Shown here: positions 347 through 36,842 of the stretch, one piece after another
Numbering within the stretch: position 1 is the stretch's first letter
Layout: every line of letters starts with the position of its first letter
Assembly (NCBI GenBank): GCA_020718605.1
Contig: DYRR01000002.1
Span: 13,357 to 50,347, forward strand
Source: Chthoniobacter flavus
Lineage (GTDB): Bacteria; Verrucomicrobiota; Verrucomicrobiia; Chthoniobacterales; CAKUMP01
Direction of reading: 5' to 3'
Length of the DNA: 36,991 nt
Position numbers and translations under genes: made by a program
The notes under the pieces: model-generated
Told to the model about the DNA's origin: nothing
Database searches by the model: none
What the model saw: only the letters and a program-made list of their open reading frames with translations

Positions 347-3300
347 ATGAACCCCGCGCCCCCCACAGAGATCCGGAGCCCGTCCATGGTGCGATGGAAA
401 AGCGTTGCGTTGTGGTCCGGGATCGCATTGGCGCAGTTTGGCGCCGCGCGGTTCGGGCTCCAGTTCATCACCATGGGAGACAGCGTCTCCCCGATCTGGC
501 CGGCCAGTGGACTGGCCCTGGCGGTTCTGCTCCTTGCGGGAAGATCTTATTGGCCGGCGGTGTTGCTGGGCTCGTTTCTGGCCAACATGGCGTCGCCGGT
601 GCCGATCTGGGTGACATTATTCACGGCGGTTGGAAGCACCGCCGCCGCCTGGCTTGGGGTGTGTTTGATGAAACACCGTTCTTTTTTCCAACCCTCGATG
701 GAGCGCCTGGTGGATGTGTTGAGTCTCTCGATGCTTGGGGGGCTTTTGAGTTGCGGACTGGCGGCCACCCTGGGAGTCCTCACTCTTGCCATCGCCGGGA
801 AAATCGCGCCCGGGAATTTTCTGAAGGAATGGTTTGTTTGGCTCTCCGGGGATGTGATGGGAGTGATGATTGTGACGCCCTTTCTGCTCACCTGGTTGAG
901 CCCCACCCAGTTCCGGGTAACACGCCGCACCCTGCCGGAGTTCGCCGCACTGCTGGCGGGATCCCTTGTGGTATGTTGGACAGCCTTCACCTGGACCGGC
1001 AGCCGCCAGATTTTTGATTATCCGTTCGGGCTGGCTCCCTTTGTGATGTGGGCGGCCCTGCGATTCGGGCCACGCGGGGCTTCCACGCTCACTCTGCTGA
1101 TTGCCGGATTCGGCGTCTGGGCCGTGGCGCATCAAGCGGGATTTCTTACCTCCCCGTCGATGAAAAGCAATGCGCTGTTGTTGCAGGCATTTCTGGCTGT
1201 CACCTGGATCACGGGCCAGATGCTTGCCGCACTCACCGCGCAACAGAAACGGACCGAACAGCGGCTGCTCAACTCGGAACAGCACCACAGGCAGCTTTTC
1301 GACCAGAATCCGCAGATTTTGCTGGTCTATGACCGCGAAACCCTCGCGTTCCTCTCGGTGAACAAAACGGCGCGCAACCATTTCGGATATCAGCCGGAAG
1401 ACTATACGGGAATGAAAGTCACGGACCTCGTTCGGGAAGCGGACCGCGAGGAGGCCGCAAGGAGATTCCACAATGTCGGCGATGAGGAAACTCTCTCGGG
1501 GACATGGAATTTGGTCAGCGGCGGCCATACCCCCGTCTATGCCGGACTTTCCTTTCAGAAAATGTTGTTCGACCAGCGCGATGCGGTGCTGGTGCTTGTG
1601 GAAGATATCACCGAGCGGATGCGGGCCGATGAAAATCTGCGCCGGTATGAACGCAAACTCACCCTTCACATTGAACAGACCGCCATTGCCGTGATTGAGT
1701 GGGACCGGGATTTCCACGTGGTGGAATGGAACCCCGCCGCAGAAAAAATCTTCGGTTATATCAAGTGGGAAACGATCGGAAAGAACGGTCCAAGTCTTAT
1801 CGTCCCGGCACATCTGATCCCACAAGCCAACGAAATATGGAACCAGATCATCCATGGCAGCGAACCAGTCCGATTCTCCAATGAAAACATCACCAAGGAC
1901 GGATCCATCATTCATTGCGAATGGTTCAACACGCCGCTCATCGATTCCCATGGCGAGGTGATGGGCGTGGCCTCGCTGGTGCAGGATGTGACCCAGCGGG
2001 AGCACGCCGCGCTGGCGCTGAGGGAGTCCGAGCAGCGCCTGCGAAGCATCATCGACAGTTTCCCGATGGGCATTCATCTTCTGGAACTCCACGACGACGA
2101 CCAGCTCATCCTCATCGGCGCGAATCCGGCCTGCACTTCGATCTTCGGCGTGGACAGCGCGGAATTGCTGGGAAAACCCTTTGAGGAGGCCTTTCCCGCC
2201 ATGGTGGACACACAGATCCCCCGCATGTATCGCGAGACTGCCCGACAGGGAAAGACTTGGTGGACCGATCAGGTGGTGTATGACGGCGACCGGATCTTCG
2301 GAGCGTTCGAGGTGAACGCGTTTCGGACCACGCCCGGGAAACTCGTGGCCCTCTATGTCGACGTCACCGAACGCCGGCGCGCCGAGGAGGCGTTGCGGCT
2401 GCGGGACAAGGCGATGGGTGCCATCGCGCAGGGCATCGCCATCACCTCCCGCGTCACCAGTGCCGGCACCCCCTTCATCTACGCCAACCCCGCCTTCCAG
2501 CATCTCACGGGATACGGACTCGATGAACTGGCCGGGAAAAACTGGAAAATCCTCGCCGCCAACAACACCGATCCCGACGATCTCGACACGATCGAGTCCG
2601 CACTCATCCGGCAGCAAACCTGCTCGGTGGATCTGCAATGCTGCCGCAAAGACGGCACTCATTTCCTCACCACCATCAGCGTCTCGCCCATCCCCGATCA
2701 CGAGGGGCGGATCAGCCATTTCGTTTGGGTATTCACCGACGTGACCGCCATCCGCAACCTGGAATCCCAATTCCGTCAGTCGCAGAAAATGGAGGCCATC
2801 GGAAGACTCGCCGGCGGGGTGGCGCACGACTTCAACAACCTGCTCACCGCCATCATCGGGTACAACGATCTGATCCTTTCGGAACTGGGCTTTGAGAGTC
2901 CCCTGTCCGGACATTCCCGCGAAGTCCGCAAGGCCGCCGAGCGCGCCGCCGCGCTCACGGGCCAGCTCCTTGCTTTCAGCCGCCAACAGGCCATGGTGCC
3001 GCAGCGCATGGACATCAACCGCACGATCCGCGGCATGCTGGGGCTCCTGCGGCGATTGATCGGTGAAAACATCCGAGTGGATACTTCTCTTGCCTCGCAC
3101 GCGGGAGAAATCAAGGCCGAGCCCACCCAGATCGAACAGGTGATCATGAATCTCGCCATCAATGCCCGCGACGCCATGCCCGATGGCGGCACTCTCGCGC
3201 TGCGGACGGGACGCACTCGCATCACGCCCATCCAGGCCAATGCCACTCCAGGCCTTGCGGCCGGCGATTATGTCCAGATCACCGTCACCGACACCGGCCA

Positions 3301-3913
3301 CGGCATGGACGATACGGTGCGGGAACATCTCTTTGAGCCCTTTTTTACCACCAAGGAAAAAGGCAAGGGCACGGGACTCGGTCTTGCCACCTGCTACGGA
3401 ATCATCACCCAGACCGGCGGACACATCCACGTTCAATCGGTGCCGGGACGCGGGACTTCCTTCGAAATCCTCATTCCCAGACTGGATCCCGAGACAACCC
3501 CTGAACCCATGATTCCCACTGAAAACCCGGCACGGGGCGGCGGCGAGACGATCCTGGTTGCCGAGGATGACATGGCCGTGCGTCCGCTCACCACCAGCAT
3601 TCTCAAATCCCTGGGCTACCGGGTGATGGAAGCCGAAAACGGACTCGAGGCAAAACGCCGCATCACCGAGCATGGCGACCAACCCATCCAACTCCTGCTC
3701 ACCGACGTGGTGATGCCTGTGATGGGCGGCAAGGAGCTCGCCGACTGGATGCGCAAGAACCGGCCCGACACCCGCATCCTCTTCACTTCCGGCTATCTCG
3801 AAAACGCCCTTTCCATTGAGGACATGGGCGACTCGGAACAGACATTCCTGCAAAAGCCTTTCACTCCCCTCGCGCTGGCAAAAAAAGTGCGGGAAGTCCT
3901 GGATCGCGAGTGA
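347..3913 (+). CDS. Hybrid sensor histidine kinase: MASE1-like membrane domain, multiple PAS domains, HisKA, HATPase and a receiver
   Basis: 1188-aa ORF. It has a multi-TM N-terminus ([15 protein letters not shown]...), about four PAS/PAC-like repeats and the H-box [15 protein letters not shown]. ATPase boxes are [17 protein letters not shown] and GTGLGLA. The C-terminal receiver reads ILVAEDD...LLLTDVVMP...QKPF. Confidence 0.92.
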
Positions 3914-3953
3914 TGGCCGCGCACCGGCCGACTTCCACTCCAATCCGGGCACA

Positions 3954-6224
3954 ATGAAGTCACCCATGCATGGCAACACGGGGACTCTGTCATTCCGCAG
4001 CTTGATTTTTGGCGCCATTGCGATACTCGCCACGACAGGCATTCTGCTGTGGACCCTGGGGCGCCCCGCCTTCTGGAAAAAAGAGGAGAGCCTGTCTGCG
4101 GGAGCGCACGGACGCATCCGGGCATCCCACAACCCGGGTGCTCTCACATCTGAATCCTGCAAGAGCTGCCATGCGGACATTTTTGAGGAATGGAGGGAAT
4201 CGCATCATGCCCACGCCAACCGCATGCTCGATCCCGGCAGGGACCGGGAAGCCTTCGATCCCGCGCAGCGCCTCAAGTCCGGCAAAGTGGACTCCCTCTT
4301 CCACATGGTCCGCGGCCAGCCCGAGATTTTCACCCGGGACAGTCCTGGCCCGCCGCAGGCGTTTCATCCGGACATGGTGCTGGCCTACACGCCTCTCATC
4401 CAGTTTCTGATCCCCTTTCCCGGCGGACGCTGGCAGGTCACGGAAACCGCATGGGATCCCGCCCGCAAGGATTGGTTCAATGTCTATGGCTCCCACGGAC
4501 GCAACCCCGGCGAGTGGGGATCCTGGTCCGGGCGAGGCATGAATTGGAACTCCAACTGCGCGGCATGTCACATGACAAATTTCCAAAAGAACTACGACAT
4601 CGCCTCCGACTCCTACCGTTCCACCTGGGACGAAATGGCAATCGGCTGCACACAATGCCACGGGGTTGGACGCGACCACATCACCTCTCCCCCACCCCCG
4701 GGCTCCGGGCACAAGGCCGATGCCGCTTTGGCCCAGGAAACCTGCATGTCCTGCCACAGCCGCCGCGAGGAACTCACGATGAAATTCAAGCCCGGCACAC
4801 GATTTGCCGATCATTACCGTCTGGCACTGCCCAGCCAGCGCGGGCTGTATCACCCCGATGGACAGGCATTGGACGAAGTATTTGTCTCCGGCTCGTTTTT
4901 GATGAGCCGCATGGGATCGACCGGCGGCATCCGATGTCTGGATTGCCACAACCCGCACACCGGACGCACCATCCTGCCCGTAAGCAACAATGCCCTGTGC
5001 ATGTCCTGCCATTCCGCGCCCGGGCAGAACAACGCCCCCGCCATCGACCCCGTTGCCCACAGCCATCACACCGCCGAAAGCACCGGCAACCGGTGTGTGG
5101 ATTGTCACATGACCTTCACCCCCTTCATGGAGCGCGATCTGCGGCGGGACCACGGCATGCACTCGCCCGATCCGCTCCTGACCCGGGAACTCGGCATTCC
5201 CAACGCATGCAACAAATGCCACACCGACAAGCCGGTGGACTGGGCCATCGAGTGGACGGACAAATGGTACGGCTCAAAACTCGACCGACGTCAACGCGTC
5301 CGGGCCAGGCTTGTCGCCCGGGTCCATGCCGACGATCCCTCGGCCACGCCGGATCTGCTGCGGTTTTTGGCGGAGGAAGACATCCCCGCCTGGCGCGCGG
5401 CGATCGCCGGAATGCTCGGTGAACGCCTGGCCGACGATGGGGTGCGCCCCGCCCTGCGCACACTTCTGGAGGATGCCGACAGCATGGTTCGCACCGCAGC
5501 GGCGCAGGCCCTCGGCAACGATGAGCAAGAGCGAGCACTGCTGCGTCCGCTCCTGGACGATCCGGTCCGCGAAGTGCGCCTCGCCGCACAATGGGCAATG
5601 GGCCCGGAGATCCATCGGGATGCGAAGGGCTGGGCGGAACTCGCCGAATGGCTCAAGGTAAGCTCCGACCAGCCTGCGGGTGCCGCACGGCAGGGCCAGT
5701 TTGCCTTCGGCGAAGGGCACGATGCGGACGCCTTCGCATGGTATCAGCGGGCCATCGCATGGGATCCGCTCAGCGTGCCTTTGTTTCAGGATCTCGCCAC
5801 CATGAAAAATATGAGGGGCGACTCCGCAGGATCGCTCCAAACACTGCTGGAAGGCATCAAAGCCAACCCCGACAATGCCGACCTGCATTTCATGGCGGCT
5901 TTGGTGGAAGCCGAACGCGGAGACGAAACAGCGGCCGAGCGTTTATTCCGCGCAACCATCGCCAAAGATCCCTCCATGGCCCGGGCCTGGTATAATCTGG
6001 GGCTCCTGCTCTCCCAGCGCAGTCAGTTCGCCGAGGCGGTGGAATGCCTTCGCAAGGCCGGCTCGCTGGATCCCGGCAGTCCGGATTACCCCTATGCCCG
6101 CGCCACGCTTCATCTTCGCATGGGCGATCCCGCCGCCGCGCGCGAAGCGGCATCCGTCGCGCTGAAAGCCGCCCCCGGCCACCCGCCGTCCCGGGCTCTG
6201 CTGCAATCCCTGCCCGCCCGCTGA
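3954..6224 (+). CDS. Membrane-anchored octaheme c-type cytochrome fused to HEAT-like and TPR repeats
   Basis: Start moved to ATG 3954 (MKSPMHG..., TM helix FGAIAILATTGILLW) because the 3816 start overlaps the kinase. Eight CxxCH motifs are present: CKSCH, CAACH, CTQCH, CMSCH, CLDCH, CMSCH, CVDCH and CNKCH. These are followed by HEAT-like repeats (VRTAAAQALG, VREVRLAAQWAMG) and a TPR-like C-terminus (AWYNLGLLLSQRSQFAEAVECLRKA). Confidence 0.85.
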   Translation: MKSPMHGNTGTLSFRSLIFGAIAILATTGILLWTLGRPAFWKKEESLSAGAHGRIRASHNPGALTSESCKSCHADIFEEWRESHHAHANRMLDPGRDREAFDPAQRLKSGKVDSLFHMVRGQPEIFTRDSPGPPQAFHPDMVLAYTPLIQFLIPFPGGRWQVTETAWDPARKDWFNVYGSHGRNPGEWGSWSGRGMNWNSNCAACHMTNFQKNYDIASDSYRSTWDEMAIGCTQCHGVGRDHITSPPPPGSGHKADAALAQETCMSCHSRREELTMKFKPGTRFADHYRLALPSQRGLYHPDGQALDEVFVSGSFLMSRMGSTGGIRCLDCHNPHTGRTILPVSNNALCMSCHSAPGQNNAPAIDPVAHSHHTAESTGNRCVDCHMTFTPFMERDLRRDHGMHSPDPLLTRELGIPNACNKCHTDKPVDWAIEWTDKWYGSKLDRRQRVRARLVARVHADDPSATPDLLRFLAEEDIPAWRAAIAGMLGERLADDGVRPALRTLLEDADSMVRTAAAQALGNDEQERALLRPLLDDPVREVRLAAQWAMGPEIHRDAKGWAELAEWLKVSSDQPAGAARQGQFAFGEGHDADAFAWYQRAIAWDPLSVPLFQDLATMKNMRGDSAGSLQTLLEGIKANPDNADLHFMAALVEAERGDETAAERLFRATIAKDPSMARAWYNLGLLLSQRSQFAEAVECLRKAGSLDPGSPDYPYARATLHLRMGDPAAAREAASVALKAAPGHPPSRALLQSLPAR

Positions 6225-6231
6225 CCCGCCC

Positions 6232-6672
6232 ATGCGCTGGAGAATTCTCGCAATCCAACATCCCCGGCTCGCCTTTGCCCGCGCCGCGCTGGAGGAATAT
6301 CTTCCGCGCATCGCGGCCTTCACCCCGTGCGTGTTCGAGTCCGTCCAACCACGCCGCACGGAGGACGAGAGCACGGCATTGCTGCGGGCTTCGGAAGGTG
6401 CGTTCCGGGTCGCCCTCGATCCCGGCGGACGCCAACCCGACAGCGTTTCCTTCGCCCGATTGGTCGGGCAATGGGAATTGCGGCCCGAAAAATCCGTGGC
6501 CTTTCTTATCGGGGGCGCCGACGGCCACTTCAGGCCGCTGCTCGAATGTTCCGATTTTTCCTGGTCGCTGGGACCGCTCACCCTGCAGCACGAACTCGCC
6601 CTCGCAGTCGTGCTGGAACAATTCTACCGTGCCTGGACCATCCGGCGGGGTCTGCCTTATCACCGCGAATGA
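6232..6672 (+). CDS. rlmH: 23S rRNA (pseudouridine1915-N3)-methyltransferase RlmH (SPOUT family)
   Basis: 146 aa. The motifs AFLIGGADGH and LSLGPLTLQHELALAVVLEQFYRAWTI..G.PYH are the typical RlmH C-terminal knot region. Confidence 0.85.
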   Translation: MRWRILAIQHPRLAFARAALEEYLPRIAAFTPCVFESVQPRRTEDESTALLRASEGAFRVALDPGGRQPDSVSFARLVGQWELRPEKSVAFLIGGADGHFRPLLECSDFSWSLGPLTLQHELALAVVLEQFYRAWTIRRGLPYHRE

Positions 6673-8597
6673 GTGCCCGGATTCTTTCGGATAAAATGGC
6701 CGCCCACTTCGGGCACACCGCCTTCCGTCCGGGGCAGATGGAAGTCATGCAGGCATTGCTCGAAGGCCGCTCCGCACTCGCAATTTTTCCCACGGGCGGC
6801 GGCAAGTCACTCTGCTATCAGCTTCCCGCGCTCCTTCTCGAAGGTCTCACTCTGGTGGTCTCTCCGCTCATCGCGCTCATGAAAGACCAGGTGGACGCAC
6901 TCGTCGCGCGAGACATCCCGGCGGCGCGCCTTGACTCGACACTTTCCACGGCGGAAGTTTTTGCCCTCTTTGACCGCCTCTCCCCGGGCGGAATCCGGCT
7001 GCTCTATATCGCGCCCGAGCGCTTTGTGAGCGAGGCCTTCATGAGCCGCATCCGGCGCGTAAAAATCTGCCTGCTGGCCATCGATGAGGCGCATTGCATC
7101 TCCGAATGGGGACACAATTTCCGCCCGGAATATCTCCGCCTCGCCGCCCTGGCCGCGAAACTCCGAATTCCCCGGGTGCTCGCCCTCACGGCCACCGCCA
7201 CCCCGCCGGTGGCACTGGATATCTGCAGGGCATTCCGCATCAAAAAAGCCGACCGCGTGCAAACCTCGTTTCACCGGGAAAACCTCGCCATCCACATCAC
7301 CCCCATTGCGGGATCGCATCGGCTCGAACTGCTCACGGAGAAACTCACGACAGAAAAGCGCTTCCCCGCCATCGTGTATGTGACCCTGCAGGCCACCGCG
7401 GAAAATGTGGCGGCGCATCTTGCCGGGGCCGGTCTCCAAGCCCGGGCCTACCACGCCGGACTCGCGGACGACGTGCGCGCGCGTGCTCAGGATGATTTTA
7501 TGGCGGGCCGCTGTCAGGTGATCGTCGCCACCATCGCTTTCGGCATGGGCATCGACAAGGCCGACATCCGCGCCGTTTATCATTTCAACCTCCCCAAGAC
7601 CCTTGAGAATTATCAGCAGGAAATCGGACGCGCCGGGCGGGACGGCCTCGACGCACACTGCGGAATGCTCGCCTGTGCCGATGATCTCACCGTGCTCCGC
7701 AATTTCACCCTGGGCGACACACCCGGTGAACTCGCCCTGCGCCAGCTTGTGGATCATCTCCTCCGCCAGGGCGCGGCTTTCGACATCAGCCGCTACGACC
7801 TCTCGCGGACCACCGATATTCGCCCGCTCGTATTGGAGACCGTGATCACCTATCTCGAAAAGGAAAAAATTCTCGAACCCGCCGGCAGTTTTTACGCAAA
7901 CTATCAGATTGGGTTCCGCCAGCCCGAGGCGCGCGTGATCGCCGGCCACACTCCCGCCCGGCAGCGCTTTCTTCGCCGGATCTTCGACGCCGGAAAACGC
8001 GGTCCCCGCTGGCTCACCCTCAACGTGGCCAGCGCGGCGGACTCCACCGGGGAATCGCAGGATCGCATCCTCAAGGCGCTGCGTTTTCTCGAGGAGGCCA
8101 ACGACATTGAACTCAAGCCCGCAGGGTTGCGGCATCGATTCCATCGGTTGCCCGGCGCCGAAGGCCGTTCGCCCCGCGAAATCGCCACCTGGCTGCACGG
8201 CCTGTTTTTGGATCGCGAAAAAAAGGATCTCGTCCGGCTGGATCAAGTGGTCGCATTCGCCGAGGACCCCGGCTGCTCCACCAGGCATCTGCTCGCCTAT
8301 TTCGGAGAATTCCTGCCCGGCTCCTGCGGCCATTGCGGACATTGCGCGGGGGAACCGGCGGGAAAGCTGCCCCGCTCGCCGAACCGGGACATCACGCTGT
8401 CCGATCTCGAATGTATCGATGCGTTGAAGCGGGAATGCCATGCGGCCCTGCGCTCCACCCGGGCGCTGGCCCGGTTCCTGTGCGGCATCAACAGCCCGGC
8501 CGTGACCCGCGACCGCCTCACGCGCCACAACGCATTCGGACGTCTTGAGGACATCCCGTTTCACAAAGTGCTGGAGCAACTCGAAGCCGGTGAATAA
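6669..8597 (+). CDS. recQ: RecQ-family ATP-dependent DNA helicase
   Basis: Start set at ATG 6669 (MSARILSDKMAAHFGHTAFRPGQ...), which forms an ATGA overlap with the rlmH stop. The upstream 114 codons of the track ORF overlap rlmH out of frame. Motifs: PTGGGKSLCYQLPA, DEAHCISEWGHNFRPEY, TATAT, IAFGMGIDK, QEIGRAGRDG, and the Cys cluster CSTRHLLAYFGE...CGHCGHC. Confidence 0.9.
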   Translation: MSARILSDKMAAHFGHTAFRPGQMEVMQALLEGRSALAIFPTGGGKSLCYQLPALLLEGLTLVVSPLIALMKDQVDALVARDIPAARLDSTLSTAEVFALFDRLSPGGIRLLYIAPERFVSEAFMSRIRRVKICLLAIDEAHCISEWGHNFRPEYLRLAALAAKLRIPRVLALTATATPPVALDICRAFRIKKADRVQTSFHRENLAIHITPIAGSHRLELLTEKLTTEKRFPAIVYVTLQATAENVAAHLAGAGLQARAYHAGLADDVRARAQDDFMAGRCQVIVATIAFGMGIDKADIRAVYHFNLPKTLENYQQEIGRAGRDGLDAHCGMLACADDLTVLRNFTLGDTPGELALRQLVDHLLRQGAAFDISRYDLSRTTDIRPLVLETVITYLEKEKILEPAGSFYANYQIGFRQPEARVIAGHTPARQRFLRRIFDAGKRGPRWLTLNVASAADSTGESQDRILKALRFLEEANDIELKPAGLRHRFHRLPGAEGRSPREIATWLHGLFLDREKKDLVRLDQVVAFAEDPGCSTRHLLAYFGEFLPGSCGHCGHCAGEPAGKLPRSPNRDITLSDLECIDALKRECHAALRSTRALARFLCGINSPAVTRDRLTRHNAFGRLEDIPFHKVLEQLEAGE

Positions 8598-8641
8598 CTG
8601 ATGCCTATGCAAAGCCCTCATGCACGGGAATTTCGGAAAGT

Positions 8642-8660
8642 TATTCACAGGATATTCACA
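8642..8660 (+). promoter_or_regulatory. Tandem direct repeat TATTCACA-N3-TATTCACA (11-bp period) in an AT-rich patch upstream of the structured region
   Basis: TATTCACA occurs at 8642-8649 and 8653-8660. It is followed by an A/T-rich tract and -35/-10-like hexamers (TTAAAA 8666-8671, then TATTTT about 18 nt later; TTGACT 8698-8703). The promoter assignment is tentative. Confidence 0.3.
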
Positions 8661-8759
8661 AGCCGTTAAAAATAAACATTTTACGCGCATATTTTCATTG
8701 ACTTCCCCGCTGTTTTTCCCGAGATTGACGGCGGTTCTTTGAGAGAACAAAGGCGTTGC

Positions 8760-9641
8760 CGGAAGAAGCGGAAAGGCGAAAGCCGGACCGGGACCAAGGC
8801 CGCCTCGGGATAATTCCGGATCATAACCGGAGAATGGTCGGGTGCAGTTGGTGCGCCTGGCTCCCTGCCCGGACTGTTTGATTAAACGAACAGGCTTCCG
8901 GCGGGGCAAAGCTCACGGATTTCCCCGCGCGGGGTCGCACCTGCGCGGACATGCGAACATGGAAACCCCGCGGCGGGCGATGATTAGAAACCATCGCCCG
9001 GCCGAGTGAGAATCCGCAGAAAGTTTCGATCTGCGGAGGAAACACAGTGACCTGACACACGAGAGGTCGGAGTCGCTACTGTGAACCAGCACGCAAAGGC
9101 CAGCCTTGGCGGGACAACCCCGCCGGAAGATCCCCGCTCGCAAAGGGGAAGCGCAAAGGGCCGGCATGATGCGTGGAGGAAACGGGCCTGGCAAAGCCCG
9201 GGAAACCTCCTGAAGCGGGCGGCGTTAAAAACGGTGTCGCCCGGCTGCAAGAGAAAAGCGACTTGAGAGATAAGAGGTCAGACCCGTAGCCCCGGGCAAA
9301 CGCTCCGCCAAAAGCGGAGGCCGACCCGGGGGAAATCGGAAATGGCATGAAGCCCTTGCAGGCACGCCAAGTCCGTGTCTGGCGCGAATCCACCGGCGGG
9401 TGGGTTCCGAACCAGGCAAAGAGGCCTCACTCAACAATTCCGCGCCGGAAACGGACGGAACGGTCCTGCTGCGAGACCGAAGACTCCGCTTGCCGTGGAG
9501 AACAGCGTCGGGGAGCTGACAGCCGGCCGCAAGGCCGGGCGCCCAATGTTCAGCCGACGGGGAAGAGAGCGTGGCGAACTCCCACTCCCAACTTTGCGAA
9601 GGCCCCGCAGTCTCTGAAATGATGACTGCGGGGCCTTTTTT
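8760..9641 (+). ncRNA. Candidate large structured non-coding RNA of unassigned class (5' end uncertain, 3' end at an intrinsic terminator)
   Basis: There is no credible ORF in any frame across about 8598-9792; the track ORFs here are R/P/G/S-rich junk. Perfect stem-loops are dense: 8975-8982/8992-8999 (8 bp), 9013-9020/9030-9037 (8 bp), and 9043-9048/9078-9083 enclosing 9049-9053/9064-9068. Others are 9108-9113/9119-9124, 9175-9179/9206-9210 enclosing 9183-9187/9196-9200, and 9290-9296/9325-9331 enclosing 9303-9308/9314-9319. Also 9361-9366/9374-9379, and 9506-9510/9555-9559 plus 9515-9519/9550-9554 capped by 9523-9528/9533-9538 with a GCAA tetraloop. Many loops are GAAA/GCAA/CAAA-like. The strand is set by the T-tract terminator. 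Confidence 0.45.
9599..9641 (+). terminator. Rho-independent terminator
   Basis: A perfect 12-bp GC-rich stem (ggccccgcagtc 9601-9612 with gactgcggggcc 9624-9635) and an 11-nt loop, followed directly by TTTTTT (9636-9641). Confidence 0.85.
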
Positions 9642-9650
9642 CGCGGTGCT

Positions 9651-9797
9651 ATTAACCCGGCAATGAATTATAGTGACGTTGCAGACATTTTTTGGAGGGT
9701 CAGCGTCCTCGCCTGACCTGTTTTCAAGCCGGTCAGGGCAGGAGCCTGACCCTCCAACCACAACAGGAATATCACTACATTTATTTACCGGGTTAAT
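9651..9797. mobile_element. MITE-like element of about 147 bp: imperfect terminal inverted repeats of about 27 bp flanking a double-hairpin REP-like core
   Basis: The left end ATTAACCCGGCAATGAATTATAGTGA (9651-9676) compares with the reverse complement of the right end, ATTAACCCGGTAAATAAATGTAGTGATA (9770-9797). The first 10 nt are identical and about 21 of 27 match overall. The core at 9694-9755 is itself palindromic (ggagggtcag...ctgaccctcc). There is no ORF. The right end overlaps the ispG stop codon (TAA at 9795-9793). Confidence 0.55.
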
Positions 9798-11595
9798 ATG
9801 CCGGTCCGGCCAATGACTCCGGCGCGGGTGGCCCGATCCATTTGCCGTGTTCGGCGATGAGATCCTGGAGGCGATCCACCGCATCGGCTTCCGGGATATT
9901 GAACTTCACCGCCGTTTTTCCGACGTAAAGGTTCACCTTGCCCGGCGCCCCCCCGACGTAGCCGAAGTCGGCGTCGGCCATCTCGCCGGGTCCGTTGACG
10001 ATGCAGCCCATGATTGCGATTTTCACGCCCTTCAAATGACTGGTGGCGGCTTTGATGCGCGCCGTGGTGCTCTGGAGATCAAACAGCGTCCGCCCGCACG
10101 ATGGGCAGGCCACATAATCCGTCTTGAAAATGCGCGTCCCGGCGGCCTGCAGGATATTGTAGGCGAGCCGCATCGCCCGGTCCGGCGCCTCTTCGCCGCG
10201 CACGAGGATGCCATCGCCGATGCCGTCGCAGAGGAGCGACCCCGGCACGGTGCTTGCATCAAGGAGGGTTCGAAGAGAATCGGCTCCCGGGCCGACCGGC
10301 GGTTGCAGCGTGTCCTTGAGCACGATGAGATGAGGCGGACGCAGCCGCGCGGCAAGCAGGCGGAAAGCGCGGATCGGACACAAATCCAAACCATCCCGCA
10401 CGGTGACAATCTGGGGATGGTCCGTGGCATTGAGGGCATCCATCACCAACCCGTCGCGGGGATCGACTTCGTGAACCCCGGCATTTTCAACAATAATCTC
10501 GGGACGATAATCCCCCATGCGATCGATCCGGTGGGCGATCTTCCCGTGCGCGGTGCGCGGGATAAACACCCGCACCAATTCCTCGCCCCCGACGCCGATG
10601 CCGTCACATTCAAGTCGGGCGGACCTGCGGCGAACAAAGGAAAAAGGATCAAACGACAGCCGGTCCCCAAAGGATTCGCCCTGTGCGGAGCCTGCGGGTA
10701 TCCGGTTGAAAGGTTCCACCAAAGCCTGTGCCACCGGGATTTCGCGGACGCTGTCCTCGGTGAGCGAGACGCGCACGGTGTCTCCGATCCCATCGGCGAG
10801 AAGGGATCCGATTCCGATGGCGCTCTTGATGCGGGCATCCTCGCCGTCGCCCGCCTCGGTGACGCCGAGATGCACGGGATAGTTCCAGTCGGGTCCGAGT
10901 TCATCCAACCGGGATACGAGCAGGCGGTAGGCCTGGATCATGACCTTTGGGTTGCTGGATTTCATGGAAAACACCAGCGAGTGATAATCGAGGTCGCGGG
11001 AGATGCGGGCGAATTCCAAAGCGCTCTCCACCATTCCAAGCGGCGTGTCTCCGTAGCGGTTCATGATCCGGTCGCTGAGCGAGCCATGGTTGGTGCCGAT
11101 CCGCAGCGCGATGCCGCGCTCCCTGCAAAGGGCAACCAGCGGGGTGAACCGTTCGCGGATGCGCTCCAGTTCGGCATCGTATTGGTCGTCGGTGTATTCA
11201 CGGATGTCGAATTTTTTTGAATCCGCGTAATTGCCGGGATTGATGCGAACCTTGTCCACCCAGCGCGCCGATTCCATGGCCGCCTGCGGTTTGAAATGGA
11301 TGTCGGCCACCAGCGGCACTTCGCATCCGCGTTCGCGAAGCCCCCGGGCGATGTGTTCGAGATTCGCGGCGTCCTTGACCGTCGGCGCGGTGATCCGCAC
11401 GAGTTCACAACCCACGGACGCCAAATCGAGGGTCTGCCGGATACAGGCGGCGGTGTCCATCGTGTCGCAGGTGATCATGGACTGGACGCGGATGGGATTC
11501 GCCCCGCCGATCCCCACGCCACGAACCGTCACCGGGCGGGTGTTGCGGCGGGCATACCGCCAGGGATCGGGGCAGTGAAGCGGGGTGCGGTGCAT
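9793..11595 (-). CDS. ispG: 4-hydroxy-3-methylbut-2-en-1-yl diphosphate synthase IspG/GcpE, long form with an inserted domain
   Basis: 600 aa. Motifs include VGIGGANPIRVQSM, VRITAP, PLVADIHF, VRINPGN and the C-terminal Fe-S region CPSCGRT...MGCIVNGPGE. The length implies the insert-containing form. Confidence 0.93.
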   Translation of the reverse strand: MHRTPLHCPDPWRYARRNTRPVTVRGVGIGGANPIRVQSMITCDTMDTAACIRQTLDLASVGCELVRITAPTVKDAANLEHIARGLRERGCEVPLVADIHFKPQAAMESARWVDKVRINPGNYADSKKFDIREYTDDQYDAELERIRERFTPLVALCRERGIALRIGTNHGSLSDRIMNRYGDTPLGMVESALEFARISRDLDYHSLVFSMKSSNPKVMIQAYRLLVSRLDELGPDWNYPVHLGVTEAGDGEDARIKSAIGIGSLLADGIGDTVRVSLTEDSVREIPVAQALVEPFNRIPAGSAQGESFGDRLSFDPFSFVRRRSARLECDGIGVGGEELVRVFIPRTAHGKIAHRIDRMGDYRPEIIVENAGVHEVDPRDGLVMDALNATDHPQIVTVRDGLDLCPIRAFRLLAARLRPPHLIVLKDTLQPPVGPGADSLRTLLDASTVPGSLLCDGIGDGILVRGEEAPDRAMRLAYNILQAAGTRIFKTDYVACPSCGRTLFDLQSTTARIKAATSHLKGVKIAIMGCIVNGPGEMADADFGYVGGAPGKVNLYVGKTAVKFNIPEADAVDRLQDLIAEHGKWIGPPAPESLAGPAY

Positions 11596-13199: not shown

Positions 13200-14324
13200 A
13201 TGGACCCGTTCATGAAAATTCATTTTTGGTGGCTGCGATTTAGAAGACACATTCTTCCGGCCTGCGCTCTGTTGTTTGTATCCGTTCACGCCGGATGCAA
13301 AATGGAAGTCGCGCCCGTCGGGACGCCCGATCCCACACCCACCCCTGTCTCCACTCCAGAGACTCCAGAGCCGACGCCGGAATCCACTTCAGAGCCGACG
13401 CCGGAATCCACTCCAGAGCCTACTCCAGAGCCGACGCCGGAATCCACCCCCGAGCCGACGCCGGCAGCCCTGTCCTGGGAGGAACTCTCCAAGCGCAAAG
13501 ATCTCCAGCCCAGTCACACCCGCATCGAACGCCCCGTGGCTTTCCCGCTCGTCATCAATGGCCGGACCGTCGGCCAAACCCAGATGCAGGCGGGCACCGT
13601 CGTTGGGGTTCTTGGTATTTCCGAAGACACCGTCGCGGTGGCTCACGGCGACAAACGCGCCACCATTCCGGTCGCCTCGACCACGCTCGAGATTCAGATG
13701 CGCAATCTTTTGGCCAAATCCGGGACAGCCGAAACGGGCACCCCCGTGGAGATGGCTTCCGTTCCCGGGGCAACACCCCCGCCTTTCCAACCCGCCTCTT
13801 CCCCTGAATCTGCGATTGCCTCCTCCACCAAAATCCAAATGAAAGACCGGGTGCGAGCCGAAGTGGTGCGCCAGCGAAAAACCCGCATCGAAGGCGGGGA
13901 CTACGACGACAAAGTCGAGAGGATCGCTCTCAAGATCAAACTTTCCAACTCCGATCCGAAGCTTTCGTTCGAGAATCTCCGGGGCACCATCTATGTCTTC
14001 GCCGAGGACATACGGCGCCCGGGCTCCCACCGGTTGATGACCATTCAGAAATTCAAAGCCTCCCTGCCGGCCCGGGGGAACTTTGAGTTTGTCACAACCG
14101 AAGTCGAAAACGCCTACGACACCACCTACGCCAAATGGGGATACAAATACTCGGGGTGGATTCTTGCGATCCACGGGGCCGATGGAAAACTTGAGTTGCT
14201 CAAGTCCACCTCCCCCGCCTGGGAGGATGAAAGCAAACTGAGCGAACTCAAGGAGGACGGACGCTACGACCGCACCCTCAAAGAGCGCCTCAGAAACGCC
14301 TCGCGCAATTATATCGAACCATAG
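13200..14324 (+). CDS. Hypothetical secreted or lipoprotein with a Pro/Thr/Glu-rich repeat linker
   Basis: 374-aa ORF (alternative start 13212, MKIHFWW). It has a signal-like N-terminus ending LLFVSVHAGC, then TPDPTPTPVSTPETPEPTPESTSEPTPESTPEPTPEPTPESTPEPTP, then a globular C-terminal region I cannot assign to a family. Confidence 0.7.
   Translation: MDPFMKIHFWWLRFRRHILPACALLFVSVHAGCKMEVAPVGTPDPTPTPVSTPETPEPTPESTSEPTPESTPEPTPEPTPESTPEPTPAALSWEELSKRKDLQPSHTRIERPVAFPLVINGRTVGQTQMQAGTVVGVLGISEDTVAVAHGDKRATIPVASTTLEIQMRNLLAKSGTAETGTPVEMASVPGATPPPFQPASSPESAIASSTKIQMKDRVRAEVVRQRKTRIEGGDYDDKVERIALKIKLSNSDPKLSFENLRGTIYVFAEDIRRPGSHRLMTIQKFKASLPARGNFEFVTTEVENAYDTTYAKWGYKYSGWILAIHGADGKLELLKSTSPAWEDESKLSELKEDGRYDRTLKERLRNASRNYIEP
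13365..13464 (+). repeat. In-frame 24-nt tandem repeat (CCAGAGCCGACGCCGGAATCCACY) encoding (PEPTPEST)n
   Basis: Units lie at 13365-13388, 13389-13412 and 13425-13448. Partial units lie at 13413-13424 and 13449-13464. Confidence 0.85.
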
Positions 14325-20419: not shown

Positions 20420-20493
20420 TCGGGCCGACTGGATTCGAACCAGCGACCTCTTGAACCCCATTCAAGCGCACTACCAAGCTGTGCTACGGCCCG
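20420..20493 (-). tRNA. tRNA-Pro (anticodon GGG)
   Basis: The minus strand reads CGGGCCG TA GCAC AGCTTGGTA GTGC G CTTGA ATGGGGT TCAAG AGGTC GCTGG TTCGAAT CCAGT CGGCCCG A. This gives a 7-bp acceptor stem and a full cloverleaf. The anticodon loop is A-T-GGG-G-T. CCA is not encoded. Confidence 0.93.
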
Positions 20494-34946: not shown

Positions 34947-35004
34947 GGTCAGGCTCCCGCCCTGACCGGCTTGAGAAAAAACAGGGCAGGCGAGGACGCT
35001 GCCC
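34947..35004. repeat. Second copy of the REP-like double-hairpin core, inverted relative to 9694-9755
   Basis: The sequence ggtcaggctcccgccctgaccggcttgagaaaaaacagggcaggcgaggacgctgccc compares with the reverse complement of 9697-9752, ggtcaggctcctgccctgaccggcttgaaaacaggtcaggcgaggacgctgacc. No TIRs are present at this copy. Confidence 0.8.
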
Positions 35005-35130
35005 TTCCAGAGATGCAGGAAAGCCGAAGCAAGCTTCGGGGTATGGACCCAACGGGAACCAATCCACTCCCCGAGACCGAGCGGCTTTTGGCGATCTCCG
35101 GCCCGGCTCCTCAGTTTCAGCCCACTGCGG

Positions 35131-36767: not shown

Positions 36768-36842
36768 TCCGGAGTAGCTCAGTGGTAGAGCGGTCGGCTG
36801 TTAACCGATTGGTCGTAGGTTCGAGCCCTACCTCCGGAGCCA
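36768..36842 (+). tRNA. tRNA-Asn (anticodon GUU), CCA encoded
   Basis: The sequence reads TCCGGAG TA GCTC AGTGGTA GAGC G GTCGG CTGTTAA CCGAT TGGTC GTAGG TTCGAGC CCTAC CTCCGGA G CCA. It forms a full cloverleaf. The anticodon loop is C-T-GTT-A-A. Confidence 0.93.

Follow-up and report, generated by a model that had tools for sequence, protein, structure and literature searches.

A full-length MISL RNA gene of Verrucomicrobiota with DnaA-box-like sites upstream of its putative promoter

MISL RNA (Rfam family RF03079) presumably takes its name from MqsA, IspH, symporter and ligase neighbours, which are not a defining feature of the family. It was reportedly first described in the supplement of Weinberg et al (2017, NAR 45:10811). 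The main text of that paper does not name it, and the literature that we searched on MISL yielded only the Ribonanza paper, in which it is a chemical-mapping example and in which no function, partner or regulator is described; in this literature MISL is a neglected, essentially unstudied RNA. In size and complexity it falls into the class of RNAs recently shown to form unexpected RNA-only assemblies (PMC12286853). ROOL and GOLLD are large ornate RNAs forming RNA-only nanocages, OLE RNA (about 600 nt) is part of a ribonucleoprotein with OapA, OapB and OapC and forms a homodimer, and all three have turned out to be homo-oligomers (PMC12286853). Here we analyse a MISL RNA gene located between a RecQ-family helicase gene and ispG in a 36,991-nt stretch of Chthoniobacter flavus (assembly GCA_020718605.1, contig DYRR01000002.1), hereafter referred to as the window. 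A reading of the sequence without database searches (the sequence-only reading) had proposed a large structured RNA at this site.

Identity as a MISL RNA

Positions 8808–9582 of the plus strand match the Rfam 15 model of MISL RNA with 468.6 bits compared to a gathering threshold of 274.6 (E = 3.8e-141), and the match is not truncated but spans model positions 1–751 of 751. Only three matches at gathering thresholds were obtained in the whole window, namely two tRNAs and MISL. When positions 8400–9900 were rescanned at E ≤ 1, a single chance-level snoRNA match (20.8 bits) was the only addition. OLE, GOLLD, ROOL, RNase P, tmRNA, group I and group II introns and riboswitches are excluded at the model level because this permissive scan gave no covariance-model match to any of them, in agreement with the sequence-only reading, which had looked for RNase P, tmRNA, riboswitch and group II intron signatures in vain. 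The invariant MISL core blocks GAGAGNUAAGAGGNNAGACCCGUAG, GCCUCACUC and GGCGUCGGGGA are present in the window, and about 175 alignment columns are invariant across the window and 56 homologs, including the 25-nt core that was used as a search pattern. Membership of the segment in the MISL family is virtually certain. The sequence-only reading had assigned it to an unknown RNA class but had also stated beforehand that a match to Rfam would make it a known family, and the full-length match to RF03079 does so: the segment belongs to a curated family, comes from a genome assigned to the phylum of the other family members, and is a rediscovery that adds no new class.

The gap containing the RNA is real and gene-free, as had been claimed. 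It comprises 1,195 nt between the end of the RecQ-family helicase open reading frame (ORF; 6327–8597, plus strand; Pfam DEAD, Helicase_C and RecQ_Zn_bind) at 8597 and the end of ispG (9793–11595, minus strand; Pfam GcpE; convergent with the MISL gene) at 9793. The neighbours implied by the acronym are not those found here, which does not bear on membership because MISL neighbours vary.

To place the window RNA among its relatives, we compiled 84 homologous loci, of which 65 stem from representative genomes (one genome per species, bacteria and archaea) and were found with the invariant core GAGAGNTAAGAGGNNAGACCCGTAG, while the other 19 are metagenome loci found with a pattern specific to the clade of the window. 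The RNA is thus conserved in relatives, almost all of which are labelled Verrucomicrobiota. This holds for 64 of the 65 genome loci (labelled with the phylum or a lineage within it), mostly from Opitutaceae metagenome-assembled genomes (MAGs). The remaining locus, L060 (DATKFW010000015.1), is labelled Candidatus Baltobacteraceae, yet its MISL sequence groups with the verrucomicrobial L010/L053 clade; the label is probably a binning error, judged from this grouping. According to an iterated nhmmer profile, each locus carries one MISL copy, including loci from contigs of 2–6 Mb, and the limits of homology are sharp and correspond to window positions 8807–9595. Fourteen of 15 sampled related loci score above the Rfam gathering threshold (390–589 bits). 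Identity of the window RNA is about 71% to the nearest relatives from genomes, namely L007 (labelled Chthoniobacteraceae) and L058 and L020 (labelled Verrucomicrobiaceae), and 80% to the metagenome locus L068. MISL appears to be single-copy, chromosomal and vertically inherited, and the best explanation of the locus, which we regard as very probable, is a stand-alone, single-copy gene for a non-coding RNA of about 0.9 kb that belongs to the Verrucomicrobiota.

Fold and extent of the transcript

The consensus fold was assessed by projecting the Rfam structure onto a MAFFT alignment of 57 full-length sequences that had not been fitted to any structure. In the window, 160 of the 172 consensus pairs are canonical. 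Across the alignment, 87.7% of 9,395 cells are paired, compared to 38–41% when partners are slid by one to three columns, and 129 of the 172 pairs show compensatory changes; none of 500 shuffles reaches the observed values. The covariation that the sequence-only reading had suggested looking for in aligned homologs is therefore present. The stems that it had listed as examples recur in the projected structure: those at 9290–9296/9325–9331 (7/7 pairs), 9303–9308/9314–9319 (6/6) and 9183–9187/9196–9200 (5/5) are MISL consensus helices, the one at 9175–9179/9206–9210 agrees with a consensus helix in four of five pairs, the coaxial stack with a GCAA cap corresponds to a consensus stack at 9515–9554 capped by CGCAAG, and the count of at least 12 perfect stems compares with 14 canonical stems that run for 5 bp or more without interruption. 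The predicted transcript from 8733 to 9641 folds at −428 kcal/mol compared to −369 ± 9 kcal/mol for shuffled sequences (z = −6.7).

Outside the nested consensus, a stacked-helix scan of covarying column pairs, which replaced a single-column covariation ranking that was too noisy because of clade structure, pointed to four further helices. A pseudoknot involving a hairpin loop pairs UCGCA with UGCGA (8935–8939 with 8952–8956; 96% paired, three of five pairs compensatory), and a long-range helix joins AGUCGC to GCGACU (9071–9076 with 9258–9263; 99% paired, four of six pairs compensatory), the window sequence being a compensated variant of the consensus GUUGC/GCAAC. A second pseudoknot is formed by the linker CUGCAA and the hairpin loop UUGCAG (9245–9250 with 9356–9361; 99% paired, four of six compensatory) and a third by the hairpin loop UGCUGC and ACAGCG (9467–9472 with 9502–9507; 98% paired, two of six compensatory and two further pairs with one-sided G.U changes). 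Pooled, the four helices are 98.1% paired compared to 27–49% when slid, with compensatory changes in 13 of 23 pairs. These patterns suggest that at least four helices, long-range or pseudoknot, knot the fold of MISL RNA. Two further pairings were seen at the level of candidates. The first, at about 9095–9105/9160–9172 around the hairpins at 9108–9149, covaries in a realigned sub-block in which the window is not cleanly aligned. The second is a kissing loop at 8987–8991/9023–9027, where two neighbouring hairpins have complementary conserved loops, GAUUAGAAACC and AGUUUCGA (GAAAC/GUUUC); the pairing is almost invariant, with one compensated case (GCAAC/GUUGC in L040).

The same alignments bear on the possibility that the segment is a decayed or unrecognised protein-coding gene. 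Stop-free stretches of 78–256 codons do occur, as expected at 63% G+C, but none of the six ORFs (79–219 aa) within the recQ–ispG gap has a Pfam match, which bears out the earlier judgement that no believable ORF is present, and no reading frame is conserved, the longest stop-free stretch shifting in strand, frame and position among homologs. Gap runs in the alignment are mostly not multiples of three (2,155 vs. 353), and the compensatory base-pair changes are extensive. A coding remnant was rejected on the absence of Pfam matches, the frame that is not kept and the indel lengths, and the probability of a coding origin is negligible.

Conservation reaches beyond both ends of the Rfam model. On the 5′ side, a putative sigma-70-type promoter lies at 8698–8726 on the plus strand, with the −35 element TTGACT (8698–8703), a 17-nt spacer and the −10 element GAGATT (8721–8726). 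At fixed distance from the hairpin described below, the first −35 position is T in 55 of 67 loci, the second −10 position is A in 58 and the sixth −10 position is T in 60. Transcription would start at about 8733. Immediately after this point, the near-invariant hairpin GUUCnUUGAnnGAnC (8734–8748, plus strand) is found outside the Rfam model, 55–80 nt before the model start across loci. In 66 distinct sequences it is 99% paired, with plus-strand G.U wobbles in six of them, and no covariation was detected in this set, given how little the stem varies. Next comes a stem of AGGCG and CGCCU (8751–8755 with 8801–8805, plus strand), which is likewise outside the Rfam model and encloses a lineage-variable hairpin; all five of its pairs show compensatory changes across clades, and 83.6% of cells are paired compared to 23–46% when slid.

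On the 3′ side, the C-rich tail CACUCCCAACUUU (9583–9595, plus strand; consensus CCCACYCCCAAnUUU) extends beyond the end of the Rfam model and is aligned in all 57 full-length homologs. The intrinsic terminator that the sequence-only reading had placed at the end of the segment is real. It occupies 9599–9641 on the plus strand, with perfect 14-bp arms (9599–9612/9624–9637), an 11-nt loop and a T-run to 9641, and folds at −36.3 kcal/mol (z = −6.4); a consensus terminator scan missed it because of the 11-nt loop. A G+C-rich hairpin with a T-rich tail is present a few nucleotides past the 3′ tail in nearly every homolog with readable downstream sequence, and the sequences of the terminator stems differ among clades. 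The functional RNA therefore appears to extend beyond the Rfam model by a 5′ domain and the 3′ tail, and we are highly confident of a discrete transcript with approximately these ends (about 8733 to 9641), so that the earlier suggestion of a terminator-ended transcript of about 0.9 kb, rather than a leader, is likely to hold, as far as the start can be read from the sequence. The segment 8598–9641 as a whole, which had been proposed as RNA, is supported for its large structured part, but not for positions 8598 to about 8730, which seem to hold the promoter and protein-binding sites instead.

DnaA-box-like sites upstream of the promoter

The end of the helicase gene and the region between it and the putative promoter contain three 9-mers resembling the DnaA box TTATNCACA, a consensus that may not be the Verrucomicrobiota's own. 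TTATTCACC (8589–8597, minus strand) overlaps the recQ stop codon, and relatives of the window clade whose upstream genes differ also carry a GGTGAATAAC element, at a distance of about 200 nt before MISL. TTATTCACA (8641–8649, plus strand) matches perfectly, which no other site in the 37-kb window does, and ATATTCACA (8652–8660, plus strand) follows it in tandem with 11-bp phase. Between the boxes and the −35 element, an A+T-rich, UP-element-like spacer (8664–8697) shows partial conservation within the window clade, L081 and L073 being 84–88% identical to window positions 8639–8682. Across loci, the stretch from −45 to −39, counted from the 5′ hairpin, is rich in A/T.

The boxes are a general property of MISL loci. 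When at most one mismatch is allowed and the model start is taken as reference, 62 of 65 loci contain at least one box between −210 and −95 and 56 at least two, compared to 10, 0, 0 and 0 loci in equal-sized control windows, and box density is 40 times the background of the flanks. Sites are found in both orientations and often 11 bp apart. Unbiased counting of 7-mers led to the same motif: TATTCAC (377-fold), TTATTCA and GTTATTC are the most enriched (290- to 410-fold), and the de novo 7-mers assemble to G-TTAT-T-CAC-A/C. The box array thus accompanies the MISL gene across the phylum, whatever the neighbouring genes. One other 11-bp-phased tandem pair, the only one in about 440 kb of flanks, was observed at L067 (2582–2601), where TTGTTCACA and GTATTCACA precede by 24 nt the ATG of a gene (2625–5810) for a ribonucleotide reductase of class II (B12-dependent); NrdR-box-like sequences are found further upstream of that gene, at about 2485–2527. 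Ribonucleotide reductase promoters are established DnaA targets in Escherichia coli, and a tandem pair preceding a gene of this classic target type supports the assignment of the boxes to DnaA.

Because the array is located just upstream of the −35 element and travels with the gene across the phylum, we propose that MISL synthesis might be coupled to DnaA, i.e. to the replication or growth state of the cell. A sigma-70-type promoter would drive transcription from about 8733; the transcript would open with the invariant hairpin and then the covarying 5′ stem, both ahead of the Rfam model, fold into about 30 helices linked to one another through at least four helices of the long-range or pseudoknot type, and end at the intrinsic terminator (9599–9641). 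That the boxes are bound by DnaA and control the promoter is plausible at somewhat below even chance, and we put forward slightly more tentatively still the combined proposal of direct DnaA control through two to five boxes, of an RNA longer than the Rfam model and of a fold knotted by at least four long-range helices.

Several points weigh against this proposal. The DnaA assignment rests on motif resemblance, and the transcript start and the promoter rest on conservation only. The 5′ hairpin is invariant and could accordingly be a DNA operator instead of an RNA element. The extra helices were chosen from an all-against-all scan of columns and carry the selection bias of such a scan, and the Rfam seed may already mark them. 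Finally, box position 5 is T in 120 of 166 sites, which leaves room for a TTCACA-N5-TTCACA site of the OmpR/PhoB type. If the boxes were sites of another regulator, such as an OmpR/PhoB-family protein reading TTCACA direct repeats 11 bp apart, the tandem TTCACA-N5-TTCACA arrangement in the window and many other loci and the predominant T at position 5 would be accounted for. Conservation, however, also covers the TTAT half of the motif and the preceding G, the sites occur in both orientations and with variable spacing, position 5 can also be C, G or A as in TTATNCACA, and the one comparable site elsewhere precedes the ribonucleotide reductase gene. We consider control by such another regulator unlikely.

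Alternatively, the box cluster might serve the chromosome rather than the RNA gene, as oriC or as a DnaA-titrating or -reactivating site like datA or DARS, with MISL merely adjacent or transcribed through it. Three to five boxes in both orientations, often in 11-bp phase and followed by an A+T-rich stretch, would suit such a role, and in the window the boxes at 8589–8660 and the stretch at 8664–8697 show this arrangement; the closest relative, L068, has gyrA as its divergent neighbour. Against it, the sign of GC skew does not change from one flank to the other in 26 of 30 loci, the window among them (there the skew is negative to either side and the cumulative skew declines all along), and the switch from negative to positive skew expected at an origin was seen in only two loci. 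The boxes also keep a fixed distance from the MISL promoter despite unrelated flanks, which fits promoter control. An origin at the MISL locus was rejected on GC skew (window; 26 of 30 loci without sign change), whereas a datA/DARS-like role is possible; taken together, these chromosomal roles are improbable, more so than that of another regulator. Literature searches on DnaA boxes in Verrucomicrobia yielded nothing usable.

Should the DnaA-control proposal hold, it would provide the first functional handle on the orphan RNA MISL, and among large structured bacterial RNAs MISL would be the first with a link to the replication-initiation or cell-cycle regulon, or else its locus would be a DnaA-titrating site. 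What the analysis offers for future work are probable true transcript ends, extra tertiary pairings for construct design and a testable DnaA-type input.

Genomic setting and comparison with known systems

The order recQ–MISL–ispG, which the sequence-only reading had suggested checking in relatives, is kept in none of the 84 related loci, including the closest relative (80% identity), and a tblastn search of all 84 loci with the RecQ-family helicase and IspG of the window gave no match. The RNA reading is no weaker for this, since RNA, promoter and terminator are kept wherever the gene sits. In Opitutaceae loci, a divergent hrpB gene (DEAH/HA2 RNA helicase) is found upstream in 28 cases and typA/bipA (ribosome-associated GTPase) downstream in 13; the order hrpB–MISL–typA/bipA was seen in L023, L032 and about 28 other Opitutaceae loci, is absent outside this family, and may reflect inherited gene order rather than a functional link. 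Neighbours in other clades include gyrA, a GH4 glycosidase, a Ser/Thr kinase, GDPD, a DNA methylase, an ECF sigma factor and a PPDK-like gene. A conserved protein partner was rejected, as synteny is confined to the clade level (hrpB and typA in Opitutaceae).

These neighbours also bear on a cis-acting leader or riboswitch of an adjacent gene. Large intergenic structured RNAs often are leaders, and a co-oriented typA/bipA gene does follow MISL in the 13 Opitutaceae loci. The strong terminator that follows the RNA in almost all homologs whose downstream sequence is readable, the convergent orientation of the next gene in the window, ispG, and the variation of downstream genes by clade argue against it and make a leader highly improbable; variable neighbours together with the terminator point to an independent, trans-acting gene. 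MISL would then work in trans, in the form of a compact folded particle made of RNA only or of RNA and protein, and not as a cis-regulator, mRNA or simple antisense RNA. A trans-acting folded particle is, in our judgement, the likely mode of action.

Some further sequence features were noticed in the surroundings. Between the MISL terminator and the ispG stop codon, a nested palindromic element of about 150 nt (9650–9798) consists of outer arms at 9650–9676/9772–9798 and inner arms at 9692–9723/9726–9757. A second and diverged copy of the inner unit, which is about 65 nt long, lies at 34947–35008 on the minus strand, and the element looks like a REP- or MITE-like repeat. At L066 (GCA_020719905.1, contig DYPQ01000036.1), which encodes an identical IspG, the contig ends 47 nt past the ispG stop codon, corresponding to window position 9746 or thereabouts, inside the palindromic repeat; the repeat probably breaks assemblies and could hide MISL in MAGs. 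Neither of the two tRNA genes of the window (20420–20493, minus strand; 36768–36839, plus strand) is near the MISL gene. A tandem 12/24-nt repeat of ACTCCAGAGCCGACGCCGGAATCC units at 13362–13469 lies inside overlapping long ORFs and would encode a Pro/Thr/Glu-rich low-complexity linker.

The analogy with the homo-oligomers OLE, ROOL and GOLLD makes self-assembly of MISL worth testing. ROOL and GOLLD resemble MISL in size class, in their many helices and pseudoknots, in being function-orphan and in their Rfam type “Gene”. They differ in that MISL has no sequence or structure match to them, is chromosomal and not viral, is not found beside tRNAs and is confined to one phylum. A MISL RNA that forms an RNA-only homo-oligomer (nanocage) of this kind, rather than a monomeric ribozyme or a ribonucleoprotein, would be in keeping with its comparable size, ornate fold, many conserved unpaired nucleotides and pseudoknots. 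Weighed against this are the lack of any match to the ROOL and GOLLD families at E ≤ 1, the core motif being found on no viral contig, the apparently single-copy, chromosomal and vertical inheritance, and the failure to identify a conserved loop that is self-complementary. The 57 MISL loci scanned contain no tRNA, and at L043 a tRNA is located 1.2 kb from MISL. A nanocage is distinctly unlikely on this evidence, and phage association was rejected on the viral contigs and the tRNA scan. OLE is comparable as a large conserved chromosomal RNA of one bacterial lineage with a presumed housekeeping or stress role, whereas MISL has no Rfam match to it, lacks a conserved adjacent partner gene across clades and belongs to another phylum.

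With respect to the proposed regulation, the DnaA-regulated promoters of dnaA and nrdAB in E. coli likewise have several TTATNCACA-type boxes at or just upstream of a sigma-70 promoter, whereas the product of the MISL gene is a 0.9-kb structured RNA and not a replication or nucleotide-synthesis protein, and its DnaA sites are putative. The closest system by far is the MISL family itself, with which the window shares the full-length match, the consensus helices, the invariant core and, by its assigned lineage, the phylum of its closest relatives. Within the family, the window clade is only about 70–80% identical to the other MISL sequences found. Compared to the Rfam model, the conserved unit in the window is longer, comprising the 5′ hairpin and stem (8734–8805), the 3′ tail (9583–9595) and the terminator; it also appears to contain four long-range helices outside the nested consensus shown by cmscan, and it is preceded by DnaA-box-like sites.

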